Made by a program: the position numbers and the translations under genes. The notes beneath the pieces were generated by a model. That model searched no databases. It was not told the DNA's origin and was given only the letters and a program-made list of their open reading frames with translations. DNA of 64,000 nt, filler included, from Stramenopiles sp. TOSAG23-6 (Eukaryota), in assembly GCA_900128565.1 (NCBI GenBank). It is 11 parts of 11 records of this genome, joined end to end, with 100 filler letters (N's around TTAATTAATTAA, not from the genome) between each part and the next. Parts side by side here need not be neighbours in the genome. Positions count along the whole stretch, not along the records: positions 1 to 6,809 come from LT636644.1; 10 more parts are not named here. One strand, 5' to 3'. Within the stretch, counting starts at the first letter, position 1. Each line of letters starts with the position of its first letter. Positions 1-52,061 of this stretch are shown here, one piece after another.

Positions 1-60
1 AAATTTTGTACCTAACAAATTTTTTTAGATTTTTTTTTGAAATATTTTTCCAAAATACAT
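1..60 (+). mobile_element. Introner-like intron, 3' part (mirror of 6063-6171)
   Basis: GTACCTAAC ... CAAAATACAT|GGC AGT TAT. Confidence 0.8.
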
Positions 61-650
61 GGCAGTTATGCACTCATGTGGGGTACCGGGTTCGAACTTG
101 TAGATATGCTATTAACATGTAAATTTGCTGAAGGAGACTCTCGTATTTTGCAACAAAAACTAATGAGAGATCGACTCCTTGCTTTGAAAAAAGGCGGAAT
201 GTATGTTTTATTTTTTTTTTTACAAAAAAATCGATTTTTTTTTTCATACGAAATTTACAAAATACATGATGAGTATCATTTCTGAAACCATCAATGGCAA
301 TGGTGAAGAAGCCCGTTTAGCTGCAAAGTTAGGTAAAATGTTCAGTTCTGCTGGTCGAGATAAGAATAAATTATCTGACCTTATCAATACAAATTGGAAA
401 GATGTGTACAAGTACGTTGTTTTTTTTTTCCAATTTTTTTTTTCCAATTTTTTTTTACTACGAAATTTCGTACCTAACAAAAAATTCTACAAAAAAATTT
501 AAATATTTTTCACAATATATACTTTCTGAGTTAGTGGCTTCTAGACACATACGAGATGGCGAAAGAGGTGAATTCATTGAACCTTTAATTGAACGTTTAG
601 AACCTGCATCAACTCTGTTTGATGAAAATTGGAAAGATAAACTTGATTAA
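61..650 (+). CDS. Acyl-CoA oxidase/dehydrogenase family protein, 3' part (exons 61-200, 268-411, 521-650); left-arm copy
   Basis: GSYALM...CKFAEGDSRILQQK motif; frame restored by removing GT..AT introns. Confidence 0.75.
201..267 (+). mobile_element. Introner-like GT-AT intron (internally collapsed copy)
   Basis: AT|GTATGT...AATACAT|G gives KKGGMMSII; the branch-point segment missing here is present in the mirror copy 5856-5924. Confidence 0.7.
412..520 (+). mobile_element. Introner-like GT-AT intron, 109 nt (mirror copy 5603-5711, minus strand)
   Basis: AA|GTACGT...TACGAAATTTCGTACCTAAC...CACAATATAT|A gives DVYKLSELVA. Confidence 0.85.
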
Positions 651-768
651 AAAAATAAAAAAGTCATGTTTGAAATTTTTTTTTCATTTTTAAAAAAATC
701 AAATATTTTACATTTTTTTTTTTAAATCTTTTTGGAGGTTTTTAACAACTAAACTAGGGTTAGGGTTT

Positions 769-1535
769 TTATACTGTAGTTTCTACAAAAAATTGTACTT
801 GAGTGTGTAAAGAACGAAAATTTCTTATTGGTATTATTTTAGGCATACTCACAGATTGTGTACTATTTGATACAACTTTCAAAGATGAGGAACTATGTTG
901 AACAATTTTACTTGAAGGTGAAATCTCAACAGCGTCTGGAGTTGTAAGTATCCATATATTATGAAAAAATATTTTTTTTTGTACAATTTGTTAGGTACAA
1001 AATTTCGTATGAAAAAAAAATTTAGATAAAAAAATTGAAAAAAAAACATACACTGTTCGGTAGAAACATCTTGAATAGTCTTTTCTGCGTAAACAAATAT
1101 CTGAAAAGTACATCCTGATCTTGGTTTCCCTAGTGTTGTGTCAATCATTAATAGTCTAGTTAAAGCAGCTGTGAAACCAGAAGACAGAGGCACACAGTTT
1201 GAGGATTGAATACTTGGAATACCATTTACACTGTTTTGTAAAAGTTCATGCTTCAATTCAAACACGAAACGCTCTACTATGATACCATCTGCCGATACTA
1301 AGGCTATTGCAATTTGTTGCACTTTATTCGTATCAATCCAAGGATGAATTCGATTCAATACATTTTCTATATAGTCGTTTAACTGAGGATGGCGAGACAT
1401 CCATACGGCAATGCCGTAACTTCTACGACGCTCAAATAATGCTTTTGGATAAATCTCACGTACAAAAAGTATCTGATGCACTGCAACCTTGAGAAAATCA
1501 ACGAGATCATTCGTCTGAGAGTTTGATGACATCAT
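769..1535 (-). CDS. REV7: HORMA-domain protein REV7/MAD2L2 (intron 954-1051)
   Basis: FLKVAVHQILFVREIYP..LFERRR.YG..V.MSRHPQL..YI and ERFVFE motifs; the spliced exon 2 supplies the W-I-L motif. Confidence 0.9.
954..1051 (-). mobile_element. Introner-like GT-AT intron, 98 nt
   Basis: CAG T|GTATGT...CATAATATAT|GG ATA CTT gives Q-W-I-L. Confidence 0.85.
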
Positions 1536-1918
1536 TCATTTGTTCAACGAAAGCAGTGTTGTTGACATATCAGTATAATATGTGCTTGGAGATTTTTTTC
1601 TTTTATATTTTACTACTAGTAAAAAAAATAATGCAGCTGGTCCGGTCAAATTGATAGATTGACAGTGTGACCTTGGCTTGGTGCACCCAAGAAAAATTAT
1701 ATAATTTTGATGTTACCGGGTATTATATTATAGCCATCATTCATGAATCATGTGATCTATCGCGATTTCAGATTATACACACACACACGTACCTATTCTT
1801 TTTCATCCTTTTTTCAGTAAAATATAGCCTCCGTCTAGGTGGATTTTGTAGAAATACTTTTTGTCTCATTAGATACAGCTTAGTTGTGTTTCTATTACTT
1901 TTGTTCTAAGATAGTGTA

Positions 1919-2940
1919 ATGCAATCTGGAAATATTCCTTTTAGCAACATTCCACAAAATGTGTCTTTCGATGATGCCATTCAGGACTATCAACAAAGAG
2001 GCCAAACGAGTCAAGCTTTTTTTCTGTCAAATGTTCAACTCGTCTTGAAACAACACGGTAAGTAACATAATGAAAACGAAACGTACTTCCATATTTTGTA
2101 TTTTGCCTATTTCGTTTTGTACAGTTTGACTAATATTTTTACTTGTTTTATATTTTCGTACGCTACTGGTCATTTTTTAAACGTCATTCCTTTACTCAAT
2201 GGTTTCCAAATAGACCTTCAGCGTCTCTACCATGTTGTTGATTACCATAGTGGTTACGAAAATGTTGATAGGCAACGTTTGTGGATAGTTGTTACTCGTG
2301 ATATGAACTATCCTCCTAATTTCGCAAGCTTCTTACGATATACGTACCAACGCTGTTTATTTTTATTTGAAAGAAGCCAAATGAGAGTAGACCCAGTTCG
2401 TTACCCGGGTCTACCAATGATGCAAAGTTCTCCTAACCCAAATATTGAGTACGATAGTGTATCAATTGGGAATGGTGTAGCAACAAATACAAACCTGTCT
2501 AATATGTGTCGCGTAATAGGAGAAGATGGCAGCACTAATTCCGCTCATCCAGATGACATCAAAGCACAAAATGATTCAGAGATTAAAGGCTTAAAAACTT
2601 TGTTACAAAACTCACAAAATCTACAACGTATACAAACAGAAACATTTCAAAATGTAGAGACTTTGAAAAATTATAATGAAAAGTTGAGCTCAACTTTGGA
2701 ATCATCGGAAAAAATACCAAATACAATTAAAGTCAGGCAGCAACCCAACCCTAACCCTAAAGTCGGGCAGCAACCTAACCCTAACCCTAAAGTCGGGCAG
2801 CCACCAGAAGTGCAACATACATCTAAAATACAACAATTACCTCTTGTAAAAAGTGCTATAAAAGATTCAATAGGAACTCTATCAACAAAAATCATTCCCT
2901 CTGGCGAATGTCTGTTGAAAATTAAAATACCGGACAAACT
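1919..2940 (+). CDS. ARID/BRIGHT DNA-binding domain protein, 5' part (intron from 2058 to ~2168; truncated at palindrome centre)
   Basis: FLSNVQLVLKQH-G-HFLNVIPLLNGFQIDLQRLYHVV...GYENV...W matches the ARID pattern. Confidence 0.75.
2730..2800 (+). repeat. 30-nt coding tandem repeat (VGQQPNPNPK) containing CCCTAA units
   Basis: About 2.5 direct copies visible. Confidence 0.8.
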
Positions 2941-3007
2941 GTAGGTTTTATTTTTTTTTAATTTTTTTATTTTTTTTTGTTTCTTACGAAATTCTATACT
3001 TAAAAAA

Positions 3008-3040
<33 letters not shown>

Positions 3041-3041
3041 C
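2941..3041 (+). mobile_element. Introner-like intron, 5' part, running into the palindrome centre
   Basis: CT|GTAGGTTTTATTTT...TACGAAATTCTATAC. Confidence 0.65.
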
Positions 3042-3042
3042 G

Positions 3043-3075
<33 letters not shown>

Positions 3076-3142
3076 TTTTTTAAGTATAGAATTTCGTAAG
3101 AAACAAAAAAAAATAAAAAAATTAAAAAAAAATAAAACCTAC

Positions 3143-4164
3143 AGTTTGTCCGGTATTTTAATTTTCAACAGACATTCGCCAGAGGGAATGATTTTTGTTG
3201 ATAGAGTTCCTATTGAATCTTTTATAGCACTTTTTACAAGAGGTAATTGTTGTATTTTAGATGTATGTTGCACTTCTGGTGGCTGCCCGACTTTAGGGTT
3301 AGGGTTAGGTTGCTGCCCGACTTTAGGGTTAGGGTTGGGTTGCTGCCTGACTTTAATTGTATTTGGTATTTTTTCCGATGATTCCAAAGTTGAGCTCAAC
3401 TTTTCATTATAATTTTTCAAAGTCTCTACATTTTGAAATGTTTCTGTTTGTATACGTTGTAGATTTTGTGAGTTTTGTAACAAAGTTTTTAAGCCTTTAA
3501 TCTCTGAATCATTTTGTGCTTTGATGTCATCTGGATGAGCGGAATTAGTGCTGCCATCTTCTCCTATTACGCGACACATATTAGACAGGTTTGTATTTGT
3601 TGCTACACCATTCCCAATTGATACACTATCGTACTCAATATTTGGGTTAGGAGAACTTTGCATCATTGGTAGACCCGGGTAACGAACTGGGTCTACTCTC
3701 ATTTGGCTTCTTTCAAATAAAAATAAACAGCGTTGGTACGTATATCGTAAGAAGCTTGCGAAATTAGGAGGATAGTTCATATCACGAGTAACAACTATCC
3801 ACAAACGTTGCCTATCAACATTTTCGTAACCACTATGGTAATCAACAACATGGTAGAGACGCTGAAGGTCTATTTGGAAACCATTGAGTAAAGGAATGAC
3901 GTTTAAAAAATGACCAGTAGCGTACGAAAATATAAAACAAGTAAAAATATTAGTCAAACTGTACAAAACGAAATAGGCAAAATACAAAATATGGAAGTAC
4001 GTTTCGTTTTCATTATGTTACTTACCGTGTTGTTTCAAGACGAGTTGAACATTTGACAGAAAAAAAGCTTGACTCGTTTGGCCTCTTTGTTGATAGTCCT
4101 GAATGGCATCATCGAAAGACACATTTTGTGGAATGTTGCTAAAAGGAATATTTCCAGATTGCAT
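3143..4164 (-). CDS. ARID domain protein, mirror copy
   Basis: Reverse complement of 1919-2940. Confidence 0.7.
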
Positions 4165-4547
4165 TACACTATCTTAGAACAAAAGTAATAGAAACACAAC
4201 TAAGCTGTATCTAATGAGACAAAAAGTATTTCTACAAAATCCACCTAGACGGAGGCTATATTTTACTGAAAAAAGGATGAAAAAGAATAGGTACGTGTGT
4301 GTGTGTATAATCTGAAATCGCGATAGATCACATGATTCATGAATGATGGCTATAATATAATACCCGGTAACATCAAAATTATATAATTTTTCTTGGGTGC
4401 ACCAAGCCAAGGTCACACTGTCAATCTATCAATTTGACCGGACCAGCTGCATTATTTTTTTTACTAGTAGTAAAATATAAAAGAAAAAAATCTCCAAGCA
4501 CATATTATACTGATATGTCAACAACACTGCTTTCGTTGAACAAATGA

Positions 4548-5354
4548 ATGATGTCATCAAACTCTCAGACGAATGATCTCGTTGATTTTCTCAAGGTTGC
4601 AGTGCATCAGATACTTTTTGTACGTGAGATTTATCCAAAAGCATTATTTGAGCGTCGTAGAAGTTACGGCATTGCCGTATGGATGTCTCGCCATCCTCAG
4701 TTAAACGACTATATAGAAAATGTATTGAATCGAATTCATCCTTGGATTGATACGAATAAAGTGCAACAAATTGCAATAGCCTTAGTATCGGCAGATGGTA
4801 TCATAGTAGAGCGTTTCGTGTTTGAATTGAAGCATGAACTTTTACAAAACAGTGTAAATGGTATTCCAAGTATTCAATCCTCAAACTGTGTGCCTCTGTC
4901 TTCTGGTTTCACAGCTGCTTTAACTAGACTATTAATGATTGACACAACACTAGGGAAACCAAGATCAGGATGTACTTTTCAGATATTTGTTTACGCAGAA
5001 AAGACTATTCAAGATGTTTCTACCGAACAGTGTATGTTTTTTTTTCAATTTTTTTATCTAAATTTTTTTTTCATACGAAATTTTGTACCTAACAAATTGT
5101 ACAAAAAAAAATATACGAAATTTTGTACCTAACAAATTGTACAAAAAAAAATATTTTTTCATAATATATGGATACTTACAACTCCAGACGCTGTTGAGAT
5201 TTCACCTTCAAGTAAAATTGTTCAACATAGTTCCTCATCTTTGAAAGTTGTATCAAATAGTACACAATCTGTGAGTATGCCTAAAATAATACCAATAAGA
5301 AATTTTCGTTCTTTACACACTCAAGTACAATTTTTTGTAGAAACTACAGTATAA
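4548..5354 (+). CDS. REV7: REV7/MAD2L2, mirror copy (intron 5032-5169 with a 40-nt internal duplication)
   Basis: Same protein as 769-1535. Confidence 0.88.
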
Positions 5355-5472
5355 AAACCCTAACCCTAGTTTAGTTGTTAAAAACCTCCAAAAAGATTTA
5401 AAAAAAAAAATGTAAAATATTTGATTTTTTTAAAAATGAAAAAAAAATTTCAAACATGACTTTTTTATTTTT

Positions 5473-6809
5473 TTAATCAAGTTTATCTTTCCAATTTTCA
5501 TCAAACAGAGTTGATGCAGGTTCTAAACGTTCAATTAAAGGTTCAATGAATTCACCTCTTTCGCCATCTCGTATGTGTCTAGAAGCCACTAACTCAGAAA
5601 GTATATATTGTGAAAAATATTTAAATTTTTTTGTAGAATTTTTTGTTAGGTACGAAATTTCGTAGTAAAAAAAAATTGGAAAAAAAAAATTGGAAAAAAA
5701 AAACAACGTACTTGTACACATCTTTCCAATTTGTATTGATAAGGTCAGATAATTTATTCTTATCTCGACCAGCAGAACTGAACATTTTACCTAACTTTGC
5801 AGCTAAACGGGCTTCTTCACCATTGCCATTGATGGTTTCAGAAATGATACTCATCATGTATTTTGTAAAAATATTTAAAAAAAAAAACTAAAATTTGTTA
5901 GGTACAAAATTTCGTATGAAAAAATCCGCCTTTTTTCAAAGCAAGGAGTCGATCTCTCATTAGTTTTTGTTGCAAAATACGAGAGTCTCCTTCAGCAAAT
6001 TTACATGTTAATAGCATATCTACAAGTTCGAACCCGGTACCCCACATGAGTGCATAACTGCCATGTATTTTGGAAAAATATTTCAAAAAAAAATCTAAAA
6101 AAATTTGTTAGGTACAAAATTTCCTATAAAAAAAAATTTCGATTTTTTTGTAAAAAAAAAATAAAACATCCAACTTCCTGTCTTAATTTATGAACTCTTT
6201 GTGTAGCAACATCAATACATCGAATTTTACACACAGCGATAGCTTCAACTAAATCATCATCTGGTATTTCTCCATTGGATAGGCATTTATTTAATCGTTT
6301 TTCCACACCTGCGGTAAACGCCAACATATCATCAATTTCTTTATACGATTCATCCAAAACTCCTCGAAGTTGTGGCATTGAAGCGAGTGAAGTTTCACCA
6401 GCCAAACCGTTACATACCTTTGATAAAGCATACTCTTCTGTCTTCATATGCAATACACGAGCACTTACCAATGCAGCTTCAGCAATTGCTTGGCGACCTG
6501 TCAATAATCGTTGTCCAATGACCTCGATTCTCATTGGTTCATCTCCAACCTGAACATATTTGTTATCTTTAATATCACAAAATTTATTTAATAGTGCATC
6601 TTTGGGTAATTTTACATTATCAAACCACACACGAGAATTATCGAGATCATTGGCAATCGTTTTCGGTCCCATGTCAGAGATTTTGATACCAGGTTCAAGA
6701 GACCCATTATCGCTACGAAGACGCATAAAAAATGCATGAGGCCCATGTGAAACACCATCTACTTTAAGTTTTGCAATTACAACACCTAATTCAGCTGTAT
6801 AGCCCTGAT
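5473..6809 (-). CDS. Acyl-CoA oxidase/dehydrogenase family protein, 5'-truncated, three family introns
   Basis: DMGPKTIANDLDNSRVWFDNVKLP, GQRLLTGR and RQEVG-SYALM motifs. Confidence 0.8.
6063..6171 (-). mobile_element. Introner-like intron with GG donor and AT acceptor, 109 nt
   Basis: GTT|GGATGT...CAAAATACAT|GGC gives RQEVGSYALM. Confidence 0.75.
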
Positions 6810-6909
6810 NNNNNNNNNNNNNNNNNNNNNNNNNNNNNNNNNNNNNNNNNNNNTTAATTAATTAANNNNNNNNNNNNNNNNNNNNNNNNNNNNNNNNNNN
6901 NNNNNNNNN
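6810..6909. other. Artificial contig spacer N-TTAATTAATTAA-N (also ~13716, 20588, 27457, 34323, 41189, 48053, 54914, 61769, 62888)
   Basis: Identical all-frame-stop 12-mer between N runs at each contig join. Confidence 0.98.
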
Positions 6910-7290
6910 CTGCCCTCTTTGTTGCTGGTTGTGACAATGGCATTGTCTTGGCTTCGAGGCGTATTGCTGTGTGAGAGTGATAGTGTTGAGGAATATTCGA
7001 ATGTTAATCATGATACTTGGGAAGCATCAGAAGAAGAAAACCCAAAGAGAGACTGTGATGAACCACGTATGCCAAGTATGAAACGAGCTGAATTCATTTG
7101 TGCTGAGCGAAGACGTTCGAAGGCTGAACAAAGCCGTATAAGGAGAATTCAAGAGTTAGAATCTGAGCGCGATGAAGCACTAAGAATACAGCAGCTAGCT
7201 GCAAAAAAAAGTGGTCGTACTGAGAGATATCAAGATAGTTGGCGAAGACCATCTCCAATAAAAGCATCTTCTAGAAAACAGCAAAGCTAA
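6910..7290 (+). CDS. Hypothetical protein, 3' part (coiled coil)
   Basis: Open frame from the contig edge; no recognised motif. Confidence 0.45.
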   Translation: MPSLLLVVTMALSWLRGVLLCESDSVEEYSNVNHDTWEASEEENPKRDCDEPRMPSMKRAEFICAERRRSKAEQSRIRRIQELESERDEALRIQQLAAKKSGRTERYQDSWRRPSPIKASSRKQQS

Positions 7291-7552
7291 ATAGTGTTTA
7301 GTCTATGCATGAAGTTACCCCAATTATTAGTATTAGATTGGGCGATATTAATCGTAGGTAGTCTATTATAAATAAAGACGTTTTTCCTTTATTCTCAAAA
7401 ATTAATGTTCCCCTGCATAAAACACGAAATAATTATAAAAGTTTGTGTGCCACGTGTGGCCATTTTCTTTATGCATTGACTTCTTCTCTTTGCGAGAAGA
7501 ACACATATGACTGTAGCTCTGTAGCGAGTCTTCGGTTTATCTTTATTGAATC

Positions 7553-9097
7553 ATGATTCGTAGTGTTACATGCCGAGTAAATACTCACATTTCGCGGGTT
7601 TCATTGTACCCACGATCAATAGCACAAAATGTAAGGCCAGTTGCTACTGCAACATTACCTCTACAACAGGCAGCTAACGACAAAGACGCTGCAACGGGTA
7701 GTGCTGCAGATCCCGTTCTGCGAAGTGTGTTTGGAGGTTTAAAGGATCAAGATCGAATATTTAGGAATTTGTATGGTGAACATGATTGGAGGTTAAAGGA
7801 AGCTAAAAAACGCGGTCAATGGTATCGCACGAAAGATATTCTTTGTATGGGTCCAGACGCCATCGTTGATGAAGTTAAGGCTTCTGGATTACGTGGTCGT
7901 GGAGGTGCGGGTTTCCCTTCAGGTCTCAAGTGGTCCTTTATGCCGAAAAAGTGTGATGGTAGACCATCATTCTTAGTTGTAAATGCAGATGAGAGTGAAC
8001 CTGGTACGTGTAAAGATCGCGAGATCATGCGTAAGGACCCTCACACTCTTATTGAGGGTTGTCTTGTTGCTGGTTATGCTATGCGTGCTCGAGCTGCCTA
8101 CATCTACATTCGAGGTGAATTTTTTAATGAAGCTATGATTTTGGAAGAAGCAATTCATGAAGCGTATGAAGCAGGGTATATTGGTCGTAATGCTTGTAAT
8201 TCTGGGTATGATTTTGATGTGTATCTTCATCGTGGAGCTGGTGCTTATATTTGTGGCGAAGAGACAGGTTTAATTGAAAGTCTTGAGGGTAAGCAAGGAA
8301 AGCCACGTATCAAGCCTCCATTCCCAGCAAACATAGGATTATATGGATGTCCATCCACCGTAACAAATGTGGAGACTGTTGCAGTTTCTCCGGATATTAT
8401 TCGTCGTGGTTCAGGTTGGTTTAACAGTATGGGTAGACCGAATAACCACGGACAAAAGTTATTTGCAATTTCAGGACACGTCAACAATCCTATTGTTGTT
8501 GAGGAAGAAATGAGTATTTCATTAAAGGAACTCATTGATCGTCATTGTGGTGGTGTTAGAGGGGGATGGGATAATCTTCTAGCATGTATTCCTGGTGGTT
8601 CCTCTGTACCTGTGATTCCATATGATGTCTGTGATGAAGTACTTATGGATTTTGATTCTTTAAAAGATGCCAAGTCAGGCCTTGGCACAGCTGCTGTCAC
8701 TATATTTGATAAGAGTACTGACATGATTGCTTGTATTCGTCGTCTTTCACACTTTTATGCTCATGAAAGTTGTGGTCAGTGTACACCTTGCCGAGAAGGA
8801 ACAGCTTGGCTTGAGGAAATTATGACCCGTGTTGAGGTTGGGGAAGCTGATAAGAGAGAAATTCCCATGCTTGACGAACTTAGTCGACAAATTGAAGGAC
8901 ATACAATATGTGCACTTGGTGATGCTGCTGCATGGCCAGTACAAGGTCTCATTCGTCATTTTTCACATGTGATGGAAGATCGTATTGATAACAAAGATAG
9001 GTATGATGAACAGGATTGGTTTCAAAGTGCATGGAGTGGTCAGGTCACTGACGCTAATGCTTCATGGGTAAAAGAAATGCAACAGAAATGGGGATAA
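7553..9097 (+). CDS. NDUFV1: NADH:ubiquinone oxidoreductase 51 kDa flavoprotein subunit, mitochondrial
   Basis: [56 protein letters not shown]-terminal presequence; intronless. Confidence 0.98.
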
Positions 9098-13715: not shown

Positions 13716-13815
13716 NNNNNNNNNNNNNNNNNNNNNNNNNNNNNNNNNNNNNNNNNNNNTTAATTAATTAANNNNNNNNNNNNNNNNNNNNNNNNNNNNN
13801 NNNNNNNNNNNNNNN

Positions 13816-20587: not shown

Positions 20588-20687
20588 NNNNNNNNNNNNN
20601 NNNNNNNNNNNNNNNNNNNNNNNNNNNNNNNTTAATTAATTAANNNNNNNNNNNNNNNNNNNNNNNNNNNNNNNNNNNNNNNNNNNN

Positions 20688-23600
20688 CAAACGCATTCTT
20701 CGTGCTGTGAAATCTTTGCGCTTGACTGATGTTACTAATGCAATTGCAATGGTTGCAACATCTCTTGAATATATACAGTTAAACCCATCAACATCATCGG
20801 ACCTTCTTCGTATCACATCTGTAGCTGCTAATAAAATCGTTTCTATTGGTAAACAATTAGCGGAAATGGCAGGTGCTGTAGCATCAGAAGTACTTTATAC
20901 TCATGGTGCCGTTTGTAAGCTACAGTACGTATTATTGTGTACTGTTCAGACATTACTTGATAAAGGATTTTGCAAGCCTCAAGAAGAAAAATCTGAAGAG
21001 GGCGATGAATCTAAATTAGAAGATGATTGTGATGGCACAGGAATGGGCNNNNNNNNNNNNNNNNNNNNNNNNNNNNNNNNNATGATGGGTCTCGAAGGCG
21101 ATCAAAAAGAACAAGAACTTGAGGGTGAACAAGATGGTGATACTGGTAAAGAAATGGAAAACGACTTCGAGGGTGACATGTATGTTTTATTTTTTTTTTC
21201 AATTATGAACTTATTTTTCGTACGAAATTTTGTACCTAACGATTTTTTTTTTGGAAATATTTTTCCGAAATACATGTGTGACATTGAAGAAAAACAAGAA
21301 GACGAAAAAAATGATGATGATGAGGAGGAAAAAGAAGAAGAAGATATTGATCGTGAGATGGGTGATCAAGATGAAGAAATGGATAACGTTGTAGATGAAA
21401 AACAATGGGATGAAAATGAAGACGAAGAAGAAAAAGAAAATAAACCCGATGAAAAATTTGAAAAAGATGCTCCAATCAACGGTGGCAAAGATGAAGAAGA
21501 AATGCGCGCTGCTGATGAGGAGGATGAAGCACAAGAAAATGAGGACGAGAAATTGAATGATGAAAATAAGTCTAAAGAGCCTGAGGAAAAAGAGCCAGAA
21601 GTTGAAGACAATATGCAACTTGATGAGGATGAAGGTCCAATCAATGAAGATGGTGAAGATCAATAATGATGATGGCAAAGAAGATGACGAAGAAGAAGAA
21701 AATGCTGAGGAAGATGTAAATGCAGATGAAACGTTGTCACCAGAGGAAGAAGCAAAGTTAGAGGAGGAAAAACAGGAAGAAGAAAATGATGGTGATGTTA
21801 TTGAAGCTGAGATTCTTGAAGAAGAAGAACCAGCCGAAAAAGAAGAAGATGCTGTTTCTGCACCTGTAGATGATCAAGAGAAAGCACCAGAAGAGGAAAA
21901 TGATGACAAAAAGGATGATGAGAATAATGACCATGAGCGAAAAGAGCAAGGTGGCATTGAAGCATCTGAAGATGGTGATGGTGGAAAGAATCAAAACGAA
22001 GCAGAACCCGAACCTGTACCCAAACCAAATGAACAACAAGACACTGAAGATCAACCTGAAGACGAGAATGATACTGAAAAAGAGATTAGTGATAATTCTA
22101 AAAAAGAAAAAGACAAGGATGGCGATTGGTGTGAAGATGACTTTCAACCAGAAACGGATGAAAAAGACTCTCAACAACAACAATCTGAACAGTCTCAATC
22201 ACAGCTCGACAAAGATGATGAAGGTGACGATGCAAAACCTCAGAACAATGCAAATCCTCTTAGTAATCCTAATGCAGCACTTGAACATTGGCGTCGTCAA
22301 TTACAACGTCTTGAAAAAGACGAAAATAATGTTGAAAACAAAGATGATCCAGTGGAAAATCCACCAGAAGATTCTCAAAAGGACATCAAGGGTGCTGACG
22401 ATTTAATGGAAATTGATGAAGACGTCAAAGATGATAGAGCTACACAAGTTCTTGCAGCAGACAATCAACACGATAAAAACGAAACTGAGCGAGATGAAAC
22501 ATCTGACGATAAAAATAAAGAACAAATTCCTGAAGATATTGATACCGAAGAAAATGAAGAGACAATAGACGAAACACATTCAGATGATCTTGAAGTCGAA
22601 GAAGATAAAAATCAGCTAAATGATAAATCGGAAAATGATTCAAATAAGGTAAAAAAACAGGATCAAAAGATGAAACAAAATTCAATTATTTTACCTGAAG
22701 ATGAAATTAAAGATATGATGGAAGATGACGAATTAAATGGTAAAGATGAATACAGTGGTGAAAATAACGTTGATGAAGTTGAACGTGATACAAAAGCATT
22801 TACTCGCGAAGATGATACTGAATTTGTAGATGATGATGATATTATTGCTCGAATTAAAAGCGGAGAACTTGGTCAAATAGAACTGCAGCGTTTGCGTGAT
22901 GAAGTCAACAATCAGCGTACCCAAAGTGTATCCGAAGATGATGTCGATGGCCACGCTTTGTGGCATCGTTATGAGGCTTTGACCGCGGAATCTGCCCAGC
23001 GACTCACCGAGCAACTTCGCCTGGTTTTAGCACCAATGTTGGCAACTCGTTTAAAAGGAGATTATCGTTCTGGAAAGCGAATCAACATGCGAAAAGTGAT
23101 TCCATTTATTGCATCACAATTCCGTAAAGATAAAATTTGGTTACGTCGCACAATGCCTTCCAAACGATGCTATCAAGTGGTTGTTGCAATTGATGACTCC
23201 AAAAGCATGGGACCTGCGGGTCATATGGCATGTGAGGCTCTAGCAACGTTATGCCAAGCAATGTCTAGACTCGAAGTGGGAGAATTATCAGTCCTTAGTT
23301 TCGGCGAAAATGTTCGTATGTTACATCCCTTCAACGAACCATTTACAGATGATTCAGCTGGTCGGATGCTTTCACAATTTCGTTTCAATCAAGAGAATAC
23401 AAAATTTGCAAAGACAATTGAAAGTATTACTTCTATATTGGCTTCGATGCGACATTCGCAACAAATGTCTGCAGGTATTAAAGTTGAGTTCACCCAGCTT
23501 GTATTTATGATATCTGATGGAATTATGAGCGAAAATCGAGAAAAGGTGAAACAAATGGCACGAACTGCTATTGAAATGCGCCAGATGCTTGTGATGATTA

Positions 23601-24054: not shown

Positions 24055-25673
24055 ATGAACCCGCTTCGTTTCCTTCATAAAGGTGCGTCTCCTACCCAGA
24101 TATACTTTATTGGAGACCTTCATGGAGATGATACTTGTGCCCGTCAATGGGTTGCTAAGACGCAACTTGTAGACTTTACAACCAAAGAGTGGCGTTGGAC
24201 TGGGAAAGAAACAGATGCTCTTGTCTTTACTGGTGATTATATCGATAAAGGAGCATATTCTCGACGAGTTTTGGAGTTTGTACGCACCCTGCAGACCACT
24301 TTTCCTGACAATGTTTTATGTCTCTTGGGCAATCATGATTTATATGGTCTTGTTTTTTGTATTGACTACAAAAAAAGTTAGAATTGTGCAATCTTTCACA
24401 ATTACACATTTTATTAACTTTCATTTGACCATGTTGACATATTTCCCTTTATACAGGTAGATAGTATATTAGATATTCGGGCGGATCGTCCTATGGGCGC
24501 ACCTGTTTCAGAGTTTACATTTTCTTTTTTACACCCCCAAGAGTATTTGAACGCAGGGTTTTCGCCTAAGCGACCTGATGATGAAGAAATTTTATCTTTG
24601 ATGTTGGATGCACTAGAAACTGTATATGAAAAAGGGTATCAAAATAGGTATACAATGAAAAATGTGCTGACTAAAGTACCACCATTCAGTGACCATGAAC
24701 TAAGCAAACGTGCTGTTGCCCGACTGGACGCTTGGGAAAAGGAATACAATGAGGGTTTAGTCAAAACTGGTTTGTCTGACTGGCTAAAAAATCGACCAGT
24801 GGTACGTTTTCATTATGAATTTCAAATTTGTTTTTTCGTACGAAATTTTGTACCTAACAAATTTCAAATTTAATTTTTTTTACAATACATGTTGCAATTG
24901 TCGGCGATAGTTTAGTAGCACACGCGGGTTTGTCTTTGCGTTCTTTACGAAAGATAATTCAAAGTAATAAGGAGAAACTTCCATTGAGTGAGTTAATACA
25001 TAATAATACAAACAAGGCATTTTGGGATTGGTTTCCTGAAGCTCCGTTGTCAACTTTATCAGACGACAAAATTACAAAAAATTTTAAACTTGAATTCCCT
25101 ACAGATTTAGTTTTATATCGAGGTTATTTTTCTCCTCAGATGTCGTCCAGTGTCGTATCAGGATGCTCTGAAGTGGCTGAGATAATTCGTTTACTCCACT
25201 CTGAGGGAGTTCGTCGAATTGTTGTTGGTCACACCCCATCGGATTTTGCTTATGAGAAATGTAATGGTCAACTTTTGGCTGCTGATTCCTCACTATCTCG
25301 TCACTTTCGCCAATATGCAAATTTATATTGCCCTATCTCAGGAGGTACGAAAGGTTTTTGTAGTAGCAAACCCTTACAGTTTTGCGAGGGGAGTATTTCT
25401 CGTATAGAAAAAAAACAAGCTGACCAATGGAGTGATCATTTCACAATTTTGTATCACAACAAAGATGATGACAGTATGATAAACAACTTTAATGATAATT
25501 TGAGTAGATCTCAGACTAAAGATGATCAAACTCATTATAGTATTGGTACTGGATATACTTTTTTATTCTATATATGTGCCTTTTTTGTTTGCTCTAATGT
25601 ACTTCAGGTTATATTCGTGAAACTATTTATGAAGAAAAGAAAAAGAAAGACAAACAAAGTAAGTATTTTGTAA
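24055..25673 (+). CDS. Shewanella-like metallophosphoesterase with C-terminal TM (introns ~24352-24456 GT-AG and 24802-24890 GT-AT); start uncertain
   Basis: GDLHG, GDYIDKG, GNHD, VAHAG, VVGHT, ADSSLS motifs. Confidence 0.85.
24802..24890 (+). mobile_element. Introner-like GT-AT intron, 89 nt
   Basis: GTG|GTACGT...TACAATACAT|GTT gives RPVVAIVGDSLVAHAG; no in-phase AG before the HAG motif. Confidence 0.9.
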
Positions 25674-34518: not shown

Positions 34519-35065
34519 CTTCCCATGATTCTGCTGAAAGAATTCCTCTTAAAGAAAGGAAGAACACAATCACTAGTTTTTCTCGTAGTGCTGCTGGTTC
34601 AACTGGTTTTTTAAATGCAAAGAACATAAATCCAAGTTTTTCTCGTAGTGCTGCTGGTTCTCCACCTCGCATTCGTCGAAATATGAAGAATACATCACTT
34701 CACGAAATTAGGGGACATGAGATTAAAACTAAAAGATCAAACAAAACATCTGGGTCGATGAGAATACGGCAGAGATTGACAAGGCAGAATGTTCATCATC
34801 TTGGTACAGGTCCACGTTACCGCAGTATGTTAATGTACGTTTTCATCATGAATTTCAAATTTATTTATTTTTTTTGTATGAAAATGTCGTACCTAACGAT
34901 TTTTTTTATCCACAAAAAAAAACAATATTTTTCACAATTTATTAACCCTGGTCGCAGTCTTGTATTTGGTGTTGGTGATCGTATATTTATACTAGCGCAA
35001 AATGTAAGACAGCGAAATGATGTACTTGAATGGTGCACTGAAATAGAAGAAAGTGTTAGACGAAT
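34519..35065 (+). CDS. Internal exons of a protein with an RCK/BK-channel-like motif
   Basis: Spliced product reads MLINPGRSLVFGVGDRIFILAQ, resembling the end of an RCK domain; SFSRSAAGS occurs twice. Confidence 0.45.
34835..34942 (+). mobile_element. Introner-like GT-AT intron, 108 nt (in frame)
   Basis: AT|GTACGT...CGTACCTAAC...CACAATTTAT|T gives MLINPG. Confidence 0.8.
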
Positions 35066-35161
35066 GTACGTTTCATATGAATTTCTAATTTAAGTTTTTT
35101 TTTTCATACGAAATTTCGTACCTAACGATTTTAATGTTTGAAATATTTTTTCATAATCCAT
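35066..35161 (+). mobile_element. Introner-like GT-AT intron, 96 nt (donor phase does not match the long downstream ORF)
   Basis: AT|GTACGT...CATACGAAATTTCGTACCTAAC...CATAATCCAT|G. Confidence 0.75.
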
Positions 35162-36288: not shown

Positions 36289-38130
36289 CTACCCTTTTTG
36301 TTTTCCAACGTAAGAAACGTTCTTCTCTCCAAGTTGAGAATTAATAACGAGTAATCTTCCTAACTTTTCAGTATCCTCTGCTCTACATGTACTGCCAACA
36401 CGAAACTGTTCTACTTTCATTGCCACAGCTAAATCAGCCGAAAACGTGTCACTTGTTGAACCCGGTGTATTTGCGACAATGACTGCAGTACCTCCACTTT
36501 GAAATGATTTGCACAATTCAATCGTCTCTGTCACAGATGAGCAAGTTCGAGCAGCATTCAAGACAGCACCACCGAAACAACCCCGTTGCTGACCCATTTT
36601 AAAATTTGTCGTTCCCACAAGAGTATCAGCTACTACTACTAGAGGATTGCCAGATTTCGTTTCGGAATTCTGTAATTGTCCCCAGAATGAAAGAGCATCA
36701 TTCATCAATGGATCATCAACAAAACAAACGGCATATCGTTTAACAATACGCTTTATATAAGCTACAAGATCCTCTGCTTCAAGTTGATCTTCTTCACGAT
36801 GAACGTTGCACTTATAACCAAGGTCATATAATGCCCTTGTCGCCATATCATCTTGTTCAGTATTCTCTTCTTTTACACTCTTACCGGCATTAGGTACATG
36901 GAAAAAATTTGATGCTGCAATACTCATACCAATCATAACCTTACCCTCACANTGTGCGGCAATGATACACTTATTCAAATAATCCACAGCTTCTTTAAGT
37001 CCTGGTGTTTTTTCATCACTTTTATCNGATTCATCTACAAAAGACGCACCTACCTCTTTTGTATTTGATCCAATAAATTCTGGGATAAATCCACCATTAG
37101 CTGCACGGTACATCTTTTTTGGTGCTAGACGATCTACTGCTTCTTCAAGTAAAGTCGCAAATTGTACAGCTTCTGAAAAATTCTTCGCTCCTGAAGGGAC
37201 TACATGTAAAGAATGAATAGGAAGTGTGCAATTACTCGAATTATTCCCACTACTTAATAAGCTAAATACTGGAACGGGAANATAATATTTACTATCTGGT
37301 CGCTCTGCTAAATCTGCCAAATGACTATATACTTCGCTGGAATTTTCTTTNGCGCCTGCTCGACAAACTGCCTGTGAAACAGCGAGTGATGCACACCTTA
37401 AAACAATCTTCTGTACATTATATTTCAAGGTTTTTGCAAGTTTCTTTTTACGCATTTCGACAGTTTCAAGGACTCCATCTTCATCATACTTCTGCTGCTG
37501 CAGTTTTTGCTCCTTTTCTTCTTGCATCTGTTTCTTAGCATCGGATTGCTCTCTTTTCCGGAAAGCTACTTTTAGCATTGAATCTACTAAACGTTGGTCA
37601 GTTGGATCCTGACGATTTAATGCACCTGCAACGTTTGCGCTTGTAACAAATTTNGATGTCTCAGAAACNACCTCTGATATAACATTATGATAATCCTCAT
37701 AAGAAAGTATTACATTTTTAAGTGTTTTGAGACGAATTTTCTCTTTTTCAGCTTCGCTGAGGTTTTCTTCCTCACTTTGAGAATTTTCACCTGTTNGTTT
37801 ATTTTCTTCTTCAGTCGTCTCTGAGATTTGTTCTATTGGTAAAACGTCCGGAACATCAATCCCAGTTGAAACTGAAGAACGAAATACCCCATTCCGTGTT
37901 GTGACCATCACTTCGATNGCTGCTCTACCAAGACCATCAAAAGTAGATCGAGCTTTCACACTTAATAAACCTTGGAGAGATGGTGCCTGAAGTTTCAGCA
38001 ACTGTGAAATGGAAGCAAAAGGGTCTGAAGGGAGGCCACGTAGCGATATGTTCAATATTTCATTCATCTTCTGCTCTACTTTGTGCTTCCGAAGGTAATC
38101 TCGCATCTCAGTGGTAAAATTTCCCGACAT
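36289..38130 (-). CDS. ENO4: Enolase-4-like (divergent, probably non-catalytic) protein with an N-terminal Dpy-30/RIIa-like docking motif
   Basis: YLRKHKVE...LP.DPF; VKARS.FDGLG; DPTDQRLVD..L; PVP.FSLL; DTFSADLAVA; canonical enolase catalytic motifs are degenerate. Confidence 0.75.
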   Translation of the reverse strand: MSGNFTTEMRDYLRKHKVEQKMNEILNISLRGLPSDPFASISQLLKLQAPSLQGLLSVKARSTFDGLGRAXIEVMVTTRNGVFRSSVSTGIDVPDVLPIEQISETTEEENKXTGENSQSEEENLSEAEKEKIRLKTLKNVILSYEDYHNVISEXVSETXKFVTSANVAGALNRQDPTDQRLVDSMLKVAFRKREQSDAKKQMQEEKEQKLQQQKYDEDGVLETVEMRKKKLAKTLKYNVQKIVLRCASLAVSQAVCRAGXKENSSEVYSHLADLAERPDSKYYXPVPVFSLLSSGNNSSNCTLPIHSLHVVPSGAKNFSEAVQFATLLEEAVDRLAPKKMYRAANGGFIPEFIGSNTKEVGASFVDEXDKSDEKTPGLKEAVDYLNKCIIAAXCEGKVMIGMSIAASNFFHVPNAGKSVKEENTEQDDMATRALYDLGYKCNVHREEDQLEAEDLVAYIKRIVKRYAVCFVDDPLMNDALSFWGQLQNSETKSGNPLVVVADTLVGTTNFKMGQQRGCFGGAVLNAARTCSSVTETIELCKSFQSGGTAVIVANTPGSTSDTFSADLAVAMKVEQFRVGSTCRAEDTEKLGRLLVINSQLGEKNVSYVGKQKG

Positions 38131-38631
38131 TTTTAATCAAAGAGTGGTGTACTTTGTTTCTTCCTTTGTTTCTTCCTGGAAGAAAAGAAAAAAAGTAAAA
38201 AACGAAACCGTTCTGCGTTAGAAGAACCGAACGAACGTTTAATTATAACTGCCAACCAGGAGCAGGTTTGTGAATTAATAATTGTACATCATGAAAGGCA
38301 CTTTAAAGTTTGTTTCAAATCTGATCGAATATATTTTTAAAAACTTGGGAAATGTAAAATTAATTGCCGTATATTTTTAGTGTTTTGGCGTCTGCAGATG
38401 TGTAACTTATAATACTACTAATGGCAACCAGAATTATTTAGCTAAAAAAAAATGTTTAATGCTCGTTTCATTATTATTTCAAATAATAGTCATTGTTGAA
38501 GCAGCCCAGTTTAGGATTTTGCTGAAAGAGACGTGCTTCAACTAATACTTGTTTAATGTTGGGTACAATAGTGTAATTTTTGATAGTTCTATACTTTTCA
38601 ACGATTGATATTTTCCAAAGATATTAATCAA

Positions 38632-40965
38632 TTATTCATCCTTGCACTGCCAAGTAAGCCTTTTAGGGACACTAGTTTCTAGGTTACCATTTATTAGAGA
38701 GTTGACAATAGGTGTATCTTTCTTNGTCGGATCTTCGGTAGATAAAAATTTNAGATACTGTAATTTGTATAATTCAAGAAACTGCTTAAACGACATTTCA
38801 ACAGCCAATCTATTCAACATCCATCTAGACAGNGACACATCAATCCCAAGAAGAAATACATCGTTACTTTGAGACACTAATATTTTAGCACTGGAATTTT
38901 CTTCTTTGGGGAATTTCCCGAATTTTCTTTTGTATTTATTCATAAAAGTTACTGAGTTTTTTTCATACTCGTTCGCAGGGCAATCCAAACGGACAACGCC
39001 ATCTAACACCGNCCTCCCATTGAGTAATCGTGTCGACGAAACTGTGTGACCTACTATCATAAAACCAGCACCTAGCTGCTTCAGTGTATCAGCTAATTGA
39101 TTGCATCTATGACGCTGTGATGAATTGTAACCATCATAGTATTGTCCTTTAATCATGTCATCATCGGGCATTTTGGTTANATAAGCCCTTACCCATAGAG
39201 GATTATCGTATACAGGAAAATAACCACCTACATTCCATTCAGCAACAGGAGGTAGATTTGACCCACCCAAACTATTCCCAGAAATTTCTGTAAGTCGTTT
39301 ATACATTTCTAGATTAATAATGTCCATACAACTATCATTTATAGTTTCAGTACCGCACAAATGCTCTACGAAGCGAGGCTCAATGCCACCATGAGTAAAA
39401 ATACCAACAGACAAGTAATCATCGTCATTCACAGGTATCACCAAACTATCACCAATGGATGTTGTTCTTAATCTTGGCAGCATATTCTTTACATCGATTC
39501 TTGCAACCGTAGGTCTCTGCAAAATAAATGCCATATTTTGTTCAAGCCATTTGGTCCTCGCAGCTCGTTCCCCAGGCCCACTACAAACGCACAAATCATC
39601 TTCTGAACGTGTTTTATCTTTAGAAGATACAAACTCATAAAAAGGGCCAAATGGTTCTCGAGTACCATCTTGAAATATATTGACCTCCTCGTGATTGCCT
39701 AGAAGGAAATGAAAACGACCCTTATGTTCGCCTTCTAAAGATATTAGACATTCTTCTAGCTCGAAGATTGTTTGGTCATATGGTCCCCGATCAAATGTAT
39801 CTCCTACTTGAACAAGTGATACATTGAATAAAGAGGAAACACAATAGACTTCGTCATGTTCCGCAGCAAAATCAATCACAGCTTCTGGTGTAACGCCCCG
39901 CTTCGCCTTTAATCGTGTGTCGCCTTCATGTGCTGGAGAATCAATAAAGCTACGATACATTGCCAAATAGTAGTCTCTATTTGTCACTGCGGCGGCTACA
40001 CAGCAACCTTTTTCAGGAGTACAACTTTCACGTTGACTTTCTTCAGAACAGGTTGAACTATGTGCAAGATTTGAAGACTCCAGCAAGCGGAGGAACACGT
40101 GAAAGTCGCCATGAATATCCCCGAGGGCAACAACATTTTGGGTATCTTCTGCAAGTACAACACGGGAGGGTGGTTCCATCAATGTTGGTATGGATGTGAA
40201 GGTCAGTTTTGAGTAAAAAAAACCAATATCCTCCGGGTACATACGGGGTTGACAAATTTTAAATTCACTCTGATTAGCTCTCTTCCAATTGTAGTCAATA
40301 TTTCCACCTCTAATAACGAGGTTTGCCGCGATGAATCTTATGATANTATGGTTATCTTTATCCTTAGAAAAGAAGTCGAGTCCTCCTTGAAGAAAGAAGT
40401 CGAGTCCTCCATTACTTTCTTCTTTTGATACCTCACTGTTTATTAGTGCGCGAGGACAAGTCTCACAAATCAAACCATTCCACCATTTGCCCTCAACACA
40501 ATGACAATAAGGACTGCTAGAAATTCCATGACCTTGTGTCACACCTTTATGAACTTTGCAAAAATACCAGTTCTTACTTTCAGGTATTGGTGCTGGATAC
40601 ACTTCGTGTTCAGTTTCGCAGTCACCGAACCTTTCTCTATAAACGTGAACAACAAGCTCATCCCAAATTTCGTTCTCAGTATATCTAGAGCCATGTCCAC
40701 TAAGGATACTTGACCAGATAGTTGAATCTATTGAAATTTCTTCGTCGCACAAGCTTTGAAGTTTATTTTGTTCGGGAAGCGAGAGTTTTTGGAATGATTC
40801 ATCTAAAGATAGTTTCTTCGAAGCTTTGAATAAACTTTTAAAAGGGTCGCTACTCTCTAACTCTTCGGCAATTGGTCGCAAACTAGTATACGTGGATCCA
40901 TCTGAAGCTGACTTTACGATAACAAATAATGAACAAATGATTATTGTGGTATAAATCCCAAGCAT
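38632..40965 (-). CDS. Secreted Shewanella-like metallophosphoesterase
   Basis: Signal peptide; GDIHG, GDTFDRG, GNHE, THGG, PLWVR, VGHT, ID..LS. Confidence 0.85.
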   Translation of the reverse strand: MLGIYTTIIICSLFVIVKSASDGSTYTSLRPIAEELESSDPFKSLFKASKKLSLDESFQKLSLPEQNKLQSLCDEEISIDSTIWSSILSGHGSRYTENEIWDELVVHVYRERFGDCETEHEVYPAPIPESKNWYFCKVHKGVTQGHGISSSPYCHCVEGKWWNGLICETCPRALINSEVSKEESNGGLDFFLQGGLDFFSKDKDNHXIIRFIAANLVIRGGNIDYNWKRANQSEFKICQPRMYPEDIGFFYSKLTFTSIPTLMEPPSRVVLAEDTQNVVALGDIHGDFHVFLRLLESSNLAHSSTCSEESQRESCTPEKGCCVAAAVTNRDYYLAMYRSFIDSPAHEGDTRLKAKRGVTPEAVIDFAAEHDEVYCVSSLFNVSLVQVGDTFDRGPYDQTIFELEECLISLEGEHKGRFHFLLGNHEEVNIFQDGTREPFGPFYEFVSSKDKTRSEDDLCVCSGPGERAARTKWLEQNMAFILQRPTVARIDVKNMLPRLRTTSIGDSLVIPVNDDDYLSVGIFTHGGIEPRFVEHLCGTETINDSCMDIINLEMYKRLTEISGNSLGGSNLPPVAEWNVGGYFPVYDNPLWVRAYXTKMPDDDMIKGQYYDGYNSSQRHRCNQLADTLKQLGAGFMIVGHTVSSTRLLNGRXVLDGVVRLDCPANEYEKNSVTFMNKYKRKFGKFPKEENSSAKILVSQSNDVFLLGIDVXLSRWMLNRLAVEMSFKQFLELYKLQYXKFLSTEDPXKKDTPIVNSLINGNLETSVPKRLTWQCKDE

Positions 40966-41350: not shown

Positions 41351-42731
41351 TGTGGTGGGATTGGCTATTATTTTCTTGGAAAAGAAGAGAAATTATTACG
41401 ATATAATTGCGAAACTCAGAGTACGGGAGATGTTGATGTTGATACATTACATGAAGTTTTATGGTCTATTGAAGATTCTTGGGAGGAGAATTTATTAACA
41501 TTGCCAAATGCGGACTTGTACGTTTGTATCATGAAGTTTAATTTTAGTTTTTTTTCATACGAAATTTTGTACCTAACGACTTAACAAAAAATTAAATCTT
41601 TTTTCACAATATATGCGTTCTTTAGAAGAGTTTTTATTAGGTGTTAAAAATAGTCCTTTGAATACTCTTGACACCAAAACTAAAAATAATAGTGATCAAA
41701 ATGACACTATTCCGCTAATATCACCACGGGTATTATCTTTAGCCGAGGCTGGGTATGGAAACACATCAGGCTCTGATTTAAACAAATTATCATTTTCAAT
41801 ATCGGCATTTGCTGAGCATTGTTGGAAAGAAGATGGTAATCATGATCATCGACCAGTCGGTTCGCTTTCATGTGCTGTGGATATTTTACGCAAAGGTATT
41901 CATATACATACTGAAACGCCTGTTAGTCGTATTGTTTGGCATAATCCTGATACTTTATATGTTGAATCAAGTAATGGAAAAAATGTTAATGCATCTGCTA
42001 TTGTTTTAACAGTACCTCCAGCATTTCTCCATGATAAAATAGTAGAATCAAAATCAATTGATACGTCTAACAATGAGAATAGAATACCTACAACAGAACG
42101 TATTTTGTTCGAACCTTGTTTACCTGATTGGAAGCAATCGGCTGCTCGAACAATATCTTTTGAAATTGGTGTGAAACTCATTGTAGTATTCGATACAATT
42201 TGTTGGCCTAAAAATTGTCATGGAATTATTTGTTCAGATTGTTTTTTCCCTGAAATTTGGATGCAAGAACAAGAAACATCTGAAAAAAATAGAGAGAATC
42301 CTTCTTTTTACTATGCTACTGCATTCTTAATGGGTCAGAAGGCAACGGCTGTGACCAATCTTGCTGGTGGTGTGAAGGAAGCGAGTTTTCTACTAATTGA
42401 CCAGATTCAACGTATATTCAAGACTCATCCAGTGGAACATTATTTAACTAGTATTTTGGCAGATTGGGGGAAAGTACCTTATGTAAGAGGTGCATATACA
42501 AGTCCATCTGTCACAGAAGCAAAAGCTGCTGTAGAGTGTAACCGTGATACTCGAAATTCGTATAATACTGGTGGTTCAATTCGCCAGTTGCTGTCAAAAC
42601 CAGTAGATGGAAAATTGTTCTTTGCCGGTGAAGCAACACACTCATCATCGTTTATGACGGCTCATACTGCAATGGAAACTGGTCATCGAGCAGCCTTAGA
42701 AGTAATTAATACACTGAATGGTATTAAATAG
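41351..42731 (+). CDS. Flavin-containing amine oxidase, 3' part (intron 41518-41614)
   Basis: VLTVP, F.P.LP.WK, DWGKVPYVRGAY, LFFAGEAT...AHTAMETG.RAA. Confidence 0.88.
41518..41614 (+). mobile_element. Introner-like GT-AT intron, 97 nt
   Basis: TT|GTACGT...CACAATATAT|G gives ADLRSLEEFL. Confidence 0.85.
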
Positions 42732-51819: not shown

Positions 51820-52061
51820 TTCAATATAAAATACTACTCAACAAAGTATTCATAAACACAGACATAACTAGCTAATCTATAATCTATAATAAAATATTGT
51901 ATAAGATTGAAATAAATACGGGAATTCTTACTCAAATAAAAGGCAAAGTGTTTATTCAAAAATAAAAAAAATTAAAAAAAAAATTAAAAAAAAAATTTTT
52001 TTTTAAATTTAAAAAAAAAATTAAAGAGGCAAAGTTTTTATCAAAATCATTTTCCCTTTTT

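Follow-up and report, generated by a model that had tools for sequence, protein, structure and literature searches.

The window analysed here is a stretch of 64,000 nucleotides (nt), filler included, from Stramenopiles sp. TOSAG23-6 (assembly GCA_900128565.1). Its first scaffold (positions 1-6809, LT636644.1) carries a gene for an ARID-domain protein, which is split by the intron under study. The scaffold contains an inverted duplication, so that part of the gene is also read in mirror positions, and the window holds a family of introner-like introns that end in AT instead of AG. The coordinates of all features are collected in Table 1.

An interrupted ARID gene

The frame that opens at the ATG of the ARID gene reads GGT AAG TAA, with an in-frame stop TAA at 2063-2065. 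The frames upstream and downstream of this break are identical, and the downstream open reading frame (ORF) occupies 2066-2943. In a model of codons versus intron triplets, trained on the other genes and introns of the window, exon 1 has a log-odds of +33.3 bits, or 0.72 per codon, relative to the intron model. Its C-terminal end, FFLSNVQLVLKQH(G), is a candidate ARID helix 1. The ORF of exon 2 has no Met ahead of the ARID domain. The ARID/BRIGHT profile of Pfam (PF01388) matches it with 42.0-44.3 bits (cutoff 24.1) over profile positions 17/18-89 of 89; the alignment begins in codons 2168-2173, at profile position 17/18, His2171 being position 18. Ten PDB ARID chains were matched at E<=0.01 by phmmer (best E=3.6e-6), and RNA libraries from three studies or more contain exon 2. 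The break of the frame by TAA, the lack of a Met before the ARID domain and the coding-like exon 1 together require an intron, and a real intron is very probably present. Because the frame is the same on both sides, its length in nt has to be divisible by 3, and it has to span 2063-2065. Reassignment of the stop codon as the cause of the TAA was rejected, since neighbouring genes end in TAA. The C-terminal part of the protein (2735-2800) carries a tandem peptide, QQPNPNPKVG, encoded by telomere-like CCCTAA/CCTAAC repeats.

The intron almost certainly starts at 2058. An earlier reading, made from the sequence alone, had described a perfect GTAAGT donor in phase 1 and a branch-like GACTAAT followed by a pyrimidine tract, and these are indeed present, the tract being T-rich. 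Within 2050-2230 the dinucleotide AG occurs only at 2061-62, 2123-24, 2212-13 and 2220-21, leaving none in 2125-2211. AG-to-AG gaps of at least 88 nt are uncommon, not rare, with 46 among about 3,300 in the window (1.4%). Analysis of the frame confirmed that the CAG ending at 2124 is in the wrong phase for the donor at 2058; it is in phase solely with GTAACA at 2062 (63 nt), and it lies upstream of the branch-like motif. The claim that no in-phase AG exists holds as far as 2211; it overlooked the next one, at 2212-13, which is in phase with the donor but deletes the ARID loop.

That loop (2171-2215) is worth 11.8 bits of the Pfam ARID match, which scores 43.6 with it and 31.8 without, and the codon score of 2171-2212 exceeds those of all 315 intron windows. 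The loop is thus conserved coding sequence, which places the 3' end before 2171 and makes a 156-nt intron unlikely as the main form. Since no AG lies between the branch motif and this loop, the intron would end on a non-AG dinucleotide, and a non-AG acceptor of one kind or another is probable. As a canonical intron it has the consensus GT donor, and it has no AG downstream of the branch motif that leaves the product intact. U12-type introns have the 5' consensus RTATCCTT and a branch site TCCTTAAC close to the 3' end; this class was rejected for the target, whose 5' end is GTAAGTAA and whose branch-like motif is TTTGACTAAT. A search of the window with Rfam gave 0 matches, U11, U12, U4atac and U6atac included.

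The 3' end of the ARID intron

In the reading we favour, a phase-1 spliceosomal intron in the first third of the ARID gene would start at GTAAGT 2058, use GACTAAT as its branch site and end on a non-AG dinucleotide, most likely after G2168 (GT..TG, 111 nt), which lies some 35 nt beyond the branch motif. Inferred here are the branch site, the precise position of the 3' end and the tolerance of TG by the same spliceosome; judged from sequence, the chance that the TG at 2168 is the acceptor falls slightly short of even. Three lines favour it over any other single candidate: the spacing in ARID proteins, the profile score and the branch-to-end distance.

Cuts after 2168 and 2162 give ...VLKQH/GHFLNVIP... 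and ...KQH-ATG-HFLNVIP, exactly the products predicted earlier. In all five homologues that have helix 1, its Phe and the I/A-Pro of the loop are 20 residues apart, and four of them have Gly at position 13. The 111-nt cut reproduces the 20-residue spacing, bearing out the claim that it matches normal ARID proteins, whereas other cuts give 22, 25 or 36. An ARID profile built from five sequences scores 54.7 bits for the 111-nt product, 53.2 for 63 nt, 53.1 for 105 nt and 52.1 for 96 nt; only the 111-nt isoform aligns from profile position 7, a gain of 1.5-2.6 bits. The preference of the protein data for this cut is consistent but weak. The distance from the branch motif to the 3' end is 35 nt for 2168, 29 nt for 2162 and 20 nt for 2153. 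Thus, of the two acceptors first suggested, TG or CG, the TG is best by spacing, profile and branch distance, by a small margin; nothing specific speaks for the CG, and the AT at 2153 had been overlooked.

The codon log-odds of 2126-2167 is -3.4 bits, the 0.75th percentile of 399 coding windows, and adding this stretch to the ARID match contributes only +0.7 bits (Pfam). From these two values the 3' end lies after about 2155. The stretch is intermediate in character, as only 1.3% of 315 family-intron windows reach its codon score; an intron outside the family (N2, in a PP2C gene) has a similar score per codon. The 111-nt cut can be written in four equivalent registers (GG-CT, GT-TG, TA-GG and AA-GT) because GGT is repeated at both ends. 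Boundary direct repeats were considered as an insertion footprint; they do not discriminate, since the 111-nt cut has a 3-nt repeat (GGT) and so has the 105-nt cut (ACG). A phmmer search of the full protein library found nine relatives, the best at 35% identity and none close enough to fix the junction. Word-index protein searches at near and shorter lengths gave 0 matches to relatives of the spliced form, and a metagenome scan with six peptides matched 145 stretches, none of which was confirmed as related DNA.

Several observations weigh against an end at 2168. The profile advantage of 1.5-2.6 bits is small, and exon 1 by itself has no Pfam match that would support helix 1. The last 12 nt before the cut are not T-rich and lean mildly towards coding (+4.5 bits). 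A weight matrix made from 18 family 3' ends gives the sites at 2168, 2153 and 2162 scores of -6.4, -8.3 and -28.5, all poor; the score of 2168 is within the top 5.5% of background. TG is the 3' end of none of the other introns of the window, and an in-phase AT is available at 2153. RNA contigs of four runs (X5, X9, X10 and X11), whose transcripts are those of the organism or near relatives, were aligned at 90% likeness to 3060-6809. They cover the ARID gene only at 3151-3698 (mirror of 2385-2932), which is exon 2; none of the four runs has a contig over 3810-4184 (mirror of 1899-2273), so the target junction is uncovered. A terminal helix, with CG/GUA facing UACUG/ in the target and AU/GUAU facing AUACAU/ in the family, was also considered and rejected for want of covariation: six of the 14 family copies have exon bases other than AT and yet an intron that ends in AT. 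The 5-base-pair terminal match of the target is therefore treated as chance.

Two other ends were considered for the same donor. Cutting after AT 2153 (96 nt) would give ...KQH-VSYATG-HFLNVIP, with five extra residues in the loop after helix 1. The branch motif is just 20 nt away, where the family distance is 33-46 nt, and the RNA-confirmed family introns B and D skip AT sites 21-30 nt past the motif in the same ATAT/TTTT setting. The cut also has the lowest ARID profile score (52.1 bits), a spacing of 25 residues instead of the 20 seen in five of five homologues, and a weight-matrix score of -8.3. An in-phase AT is expected by chance in an AT-rich stretch; among the 36 in-phase 3' ends of 2066-2171 no other than this one, at 2152-53, is AT. 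The intron would close with the five bases TATAT, as do family copies B, C, G and I; RNA has confirmed no non-AG ending but AT in this organism, and the 12 nt that follow the cut are mildly coding-like (+4.5 bits). Taken together, these points leave the 96-nt intron rather unlikely. The CG at 2162 (105 nt; product ...KQH-ATG-HFLNVIP) is in phase, has the ACG repeat at both boundaries and scores 53.1 bits on the profile, but its weight-matrix score is the worst (-28.5), its 29 nt from the branch motif are outside the family range, its spacing is 22 residues instead of 20, and a CG end has no precedent in the window. It is a very improbable acceptor.

The remaining alternatives restore an AG. 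Were the canonical pair GTAACA (2062) and CAG (2124) used, 2125-2167 would be coding and 16 residues would stand between helix 1 and the ARID loop. This 63-nt cut leaves the frame intact and open, and no other GT-AG pairing retains the loop. Its profile score (53.2 bits) is just 1.5 bits below the best, and in four of the ten PDB matches a piece of the added peptide, CFIFSYATG, was matched by phmmer with helix 1 of ARID3A and Dead ringer. We regard it as improbable, as the weak GTAACA donor is overlapped by the perfect GTAAGT 4 nt upstream, a CTAA[CT]-like motif is missing from the 63 nt, the T-tract and GACTAAT would become exon, and the stretch retained is at the 0.75th percentile of coding windows and adds +0.7 bits in Pfam. 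Moreover, the use of AG is not automatic here, since in one family intron confirmed by RNA an AG 13 nt past the branch motif is left unused. Slimmer still are the prospects of splicing from 2058 to the AG at 2213 (156 nt), the first AG past the branch, with a loss of 15 ARID-loop residues, or of a pseudogene or unproductive splicing. The AG is in phase with the strong donor, and its surroundings, TTTCCAAATAG/A, look like those of some family 3' ends (TTTCCAAAATACAT/G, for example); against this, the deleted stretch carries the 11.8 bits of ARID homology and so is under selection as coding sequence, its 2171-2212 part scores above 315 of 315 intron windows, and exon 2 occurs in the RNA libraries mentioned above. 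Finally, the boundaries of the 111-nt cut could be correct and the acceptor normally CAG, T2167 being a mutation private to this cell or an amplification or assembly error and the population intron GT-AG. A single T-to-A change yields an in-phase CAG/G at exactly the ARID-matching junction, in an assembly with known defects (the chimeric palindrome, a homopolymer frameshift near 54010, scattered N). Six of 16 dinucleotides are one step from AG, which makes this a weak coincidence; consensus substitution errors are rare, and both palindrome arms agree on T2167, though the arms are not independent. The chance of such an error or private change is very faint.

The AT-ending intron family and its transcripts

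The family has the layout GTAYGT...TACGAAATTTTGTACCTAACRA...CAYAATAYAT/G; its members are AT-rich and about 90-110 nt long. A profile of 12 copies gives 27 matches at E<1e-3 in the window, or about 23 loci without palindrome duplicates; with about 59 kilobases (kb) of sequence this amounts to one per 2.6 kb. Wherever an ORF can be identified the copy lies in sense orientation, and the boundaries of most copies carry short direct repeats (ATG or CATG). The ORF is kept at homologous boundaries in 14 of 15 frame-tested copies, 11 of them with GT-AT and one each with GG-AT (copy D), GT-TT (K) and GT-AG (Q). GT..AT is the only pair that fits both the 11 standard copies and the register-free junction of B. 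Copy A adjoins another intron too closely for a frame test; it is confirmed by RNA. The endings of K and Q, like the TG of the target, are based on reading frame and homology. Of 14 copies checked, 13 have a CTAA[CT] motif 33-46 nt upstream of the 3' end; in N2 this distance is 34 nt. Among metagenome contigs, a family-core pattern matched eight loci, of which only one (L005) is a real copy.

Contigs of the polyA metatranscriptome run X9 show three neighbouring family introns removed, and the only 3' ending the three share is AT. The junction of B has no alternative register, one flank having 5 mismatches in 85 nt, and none of the registers of D has a GT. GT..AT family introns are thus spliced in this organism or near relatives. 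Intron choice in these transcripts passes over nearer sites: B and D skip AT sites 21-30 nt after the motif, in an ATAT/TTTT setting, and D skips an AG 13 nt after the branch motif. Over the family elements (5060-5184, 5810-5934 and 6060-6184) RNA depth, summed over contigs from about 1,000 contigs per run, reaches 6,000-8,000 in X5 and X11, as compared with about 2-25 over the flanking exons. This depth reflects either abundant unspliced or lariat RNA, or DNA in the libraries.

The ARID intron is not a member of this family, as the sequence-only reading had said: the 12-copy profile does not match it even with the nhmmer filters off, and the 27 matches lie elsewhere in the window. The two other non-family candidates, N1 and N2, likewise have no match under the same settings. 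In the target there is no in-frame AT 33-46 nt past the motif, as family members have; the position at 35 nt is TG. By comparison, the family weight matrix places the AT end of N2 among the top 0.08% of background. Like the family, and in the same organism, the target has a GT start and a probable non-AG ending; a CTAA[CT]-type motif stands some 35 nt ahead of the proposed 3' end, and about 10 mixed bases separate a T-run from the cut. At 111 nt it is close to the 89-109 nt of the family. It differs in its donor (GTAAGT versus GTAYGT) and proposed end (TG versus AT), and has no detectable homology to the family profile. It is like a canonical U2-type intron in its GTAAGT donor, TACTAAC-like branch motif, T-rich tract and short length, and unlike one in that no AG lies between the branch motif and conserved coding sequence, the in-phase AG deleting part of the ARID domain.

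A general relaxation of 3'-site recognition, proposed earlier as a property of this spliceosome, is partly supported. RNA confirms three AT-type family introns, and the copies ending in TT and AG and the one without a GT register lend indirect support; the endings confirmed by RNA are only AT-compatible, at three junctions from one run. It is possible, though doubtful, that the 3' site is chosen mainly by position, about 33-46 nt past CTAAY, with the dinucleotide of little weight. AT (in most introns), AG, TT and TG may then all work, and the AG 13 nt after the motif may be skipped for this reason; the ARID intron may be an old, non-repeat intron that drifted to TG under such tolerance, and the same tolerance may have opened the coding sequence, at about one site per 2.6 kb, to an AT-ending mobile element. 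That 3'-site tolerance explains the spread of the family is speculation. No spliceosome genes were found among the 127 ORFs of the window that were scanned.

Table 1. Positions of the features of the window that are discussed in the text (a slash marks a splice junction)
Feature	Position	Strand	Remarks
ARID-domain gene	ATG 1919 to stop TAG 2941-2943	+	ORF and Pfam
Exon 1	1919..2057	+	46 codons and first base of split Gly codon; open frame from ATG
5' splice site GTAAGT, phase 1	2058..2063	+	G2057 is codon position 1
Branch-point-like GACTAAT	2128..2134	+	branch A taken as 2133; T-rich tract after motif
Intron, best reading, 111 nt, GT..TG	2058..2168	+	open joined ORF, ARID profile, homologue spacing
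TG, proposed last intron bases	2167..2168	+	T-to-A at 2167 would give in-phase CAG
In-phase AT, 96-nt option, TTTTATAT/T	2152..2153	+	20 nt from branch motif
In-phase CG, 105-nt option	2161..2162	+	3' weight matrix -28.5, lowest
Alternative canonical intron GTAACA..CAG, 63 nt	2062..2124	+	in frame; adds 16 residues, NLTNIFTCFIFSYATG
First AG 3' of branch motif, 156-nt option	2212..2213	+	in phase with donor 2058
Exon 2	2169..2943	+	ARID match H2171 to ~2371; Pfam PF01388; PDB ARID chains
Exact inverted duplicate of intron	3915..4025	-	second arm of palindromic scaffold
RNA-confirmed intron B	skips 5603-5711, 109 nt		sense CAA/GTACGT...ATATAT/ACT; contig joins 5602 to 5712
RNA-confirmed intron D	skips 6061-6169		contig joins 6060 to 6170; 3 ambiguous letters; registers TG-CA, GG-AT, GA-TG, AT-GG
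Third RNA-confirmed intron	skips 5858-5924		same contig as D, joins 5925 to 5857
Family copy D	6063-6171	-	RNA-confirmed; no GT register (GG-AT and others)
Family copy F	35066-35161		frame lost with GT..AT; length must be 2 mod 3
Family copy K	57154-57250		ends ACTT/GG (TT), in-frame homologous site; alternative in-phase ACAT/ at 57232
Family copy Q	53519-53426	-	ends CACAAAAAAG/ (AG) by phase
Family copies	201-267, 412-520, 21180-21275, 24802-24890, 34835-34942, 35066-35161, 41518-41614, 56898-56990, 57154-57250, 57720-57816	unmarked	
Family copies	954-1051, 6063-6171, 46779-46873, 53426-53519, 54580-54671, 60737-60827	-	
Half copies adjoining gaps	20524, 27555, 34446, 41286, 48159, 61717-61769		
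Family copy L005	364-443	-	position on metagenome contig; ends CACAATACAT/GG, like window copies
N1, Metallophos gene	24352-24456		fits GTTTTT..CAG, 105 nt, or GTTTTT..CCAT, 81 nt (24352-24432)
N2, PP2C gene	44602-44697		fits GT..AT, 96 nt; alternative GTCATA..TAG 44606-44692
Linkers	6810-6909, 13716-13815, 20588-20687		and seven further sites

Known systems and the state of the assembly

The AG at the end of the intron is among the most conserved signals in eukaryotic gene expression, and the organism-wide departures from it that are known are few, among them Fritillaria, Amoebophrya, euglenids and diplonemids. An earlier paper reportedly links the introns of the tunicate Fritillaria borealis to transposon insertions. 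These non-canonical introns are described as recognised by divergent U2AF paralogues (PMC13326754). The likeness to the present case would lie in an organism-wide departure from the AG rule at 3' ends, handled by a modified major spliceosome; the difference is that 95% of Fritillaria introns escape GT/AG at both ends, whereas the 5' end of the target is canonical (PMC13326754). Amoebophrya has non-canonical introner elements with variable splice motifs, confirmed by transcripts (PMC7789003). It too is a marine protist with repeated intron elements, which have direct and inverted repeats at their boundaries. Its genomes are GC-rich (guanine plus cytosine 54-58% in the genes quoted), and where its introns are spliced varies with respect to a hairpin (PMC7789003), whereas the family of the window is AT-rich with fixed GT..AT and the target intron is not a repeat. 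In an introner survey, only AG and AC were taken as known 3' sites, and families with unfamiliar sites were dropped unless supported by RNA (PMC12130899). The intron and splicing passages of papers on single-cell genomes of uncultured marine stramenopiles make no mention of non-canonical sites. Literature searches on single-cell genomes or marine protists gave no paper that is listed as describing a GT-AT intron family.

The genome is crowded with an AT-ending introner-like family and is the grazer-sized genome of a unicellular marine organism. If its 3' dinucleotide is indeed free while the 5' and branch sites are canonical, it would offer a simpler natural setting in which to study the choice of site in the second catalytic step, and would illustrate the way in which thousands of working introns can arise from a mobile element whose ending is 'wrong'. 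Most genes with introns in this organism will be modelled wrongly by gene predictors that accept only GT-AG.

Separate scaffolds, none longer than about 6.8 kb, make up the window, with N44-TTAATTAATTAA-N44 linkers between them, so that genes on either side of a linker are not neighbours. The inverted duplication of scaffold 1 (1-6122) is centred near 3041 on a poly-T/poly-A tract. Its arms, 969-3032 and 3051-5114, are reverse complements with 100% identity over 2,064 nt, and the outer parts agree at 97.5%, differing by indels inside family introns such as a 40-nt tandem duplication at about 5099-5138. The palindrome is probably an amplification or assembly chimera, and the second copy of the intron is therefore not independent evidence. 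Single N letters are scattered in 36952-40346 and 51428-52645. A RabGAP-TBC gene on the minus strand changes frame inside an A-run at about 54005-54020 (GCTGAAAAAATTTGATGCC) and shows no intron signal there; this is probably a homopolymer indel error, the assembly not being base-perfect. The source is a marine eukaryote with compact genes and a GC content of 30-39% across the window. DNA of this stretch was matched in small DNA runs of a coded 'organism A' and in seawater metagenomes, and parts of it in marine metatranscriptomes.

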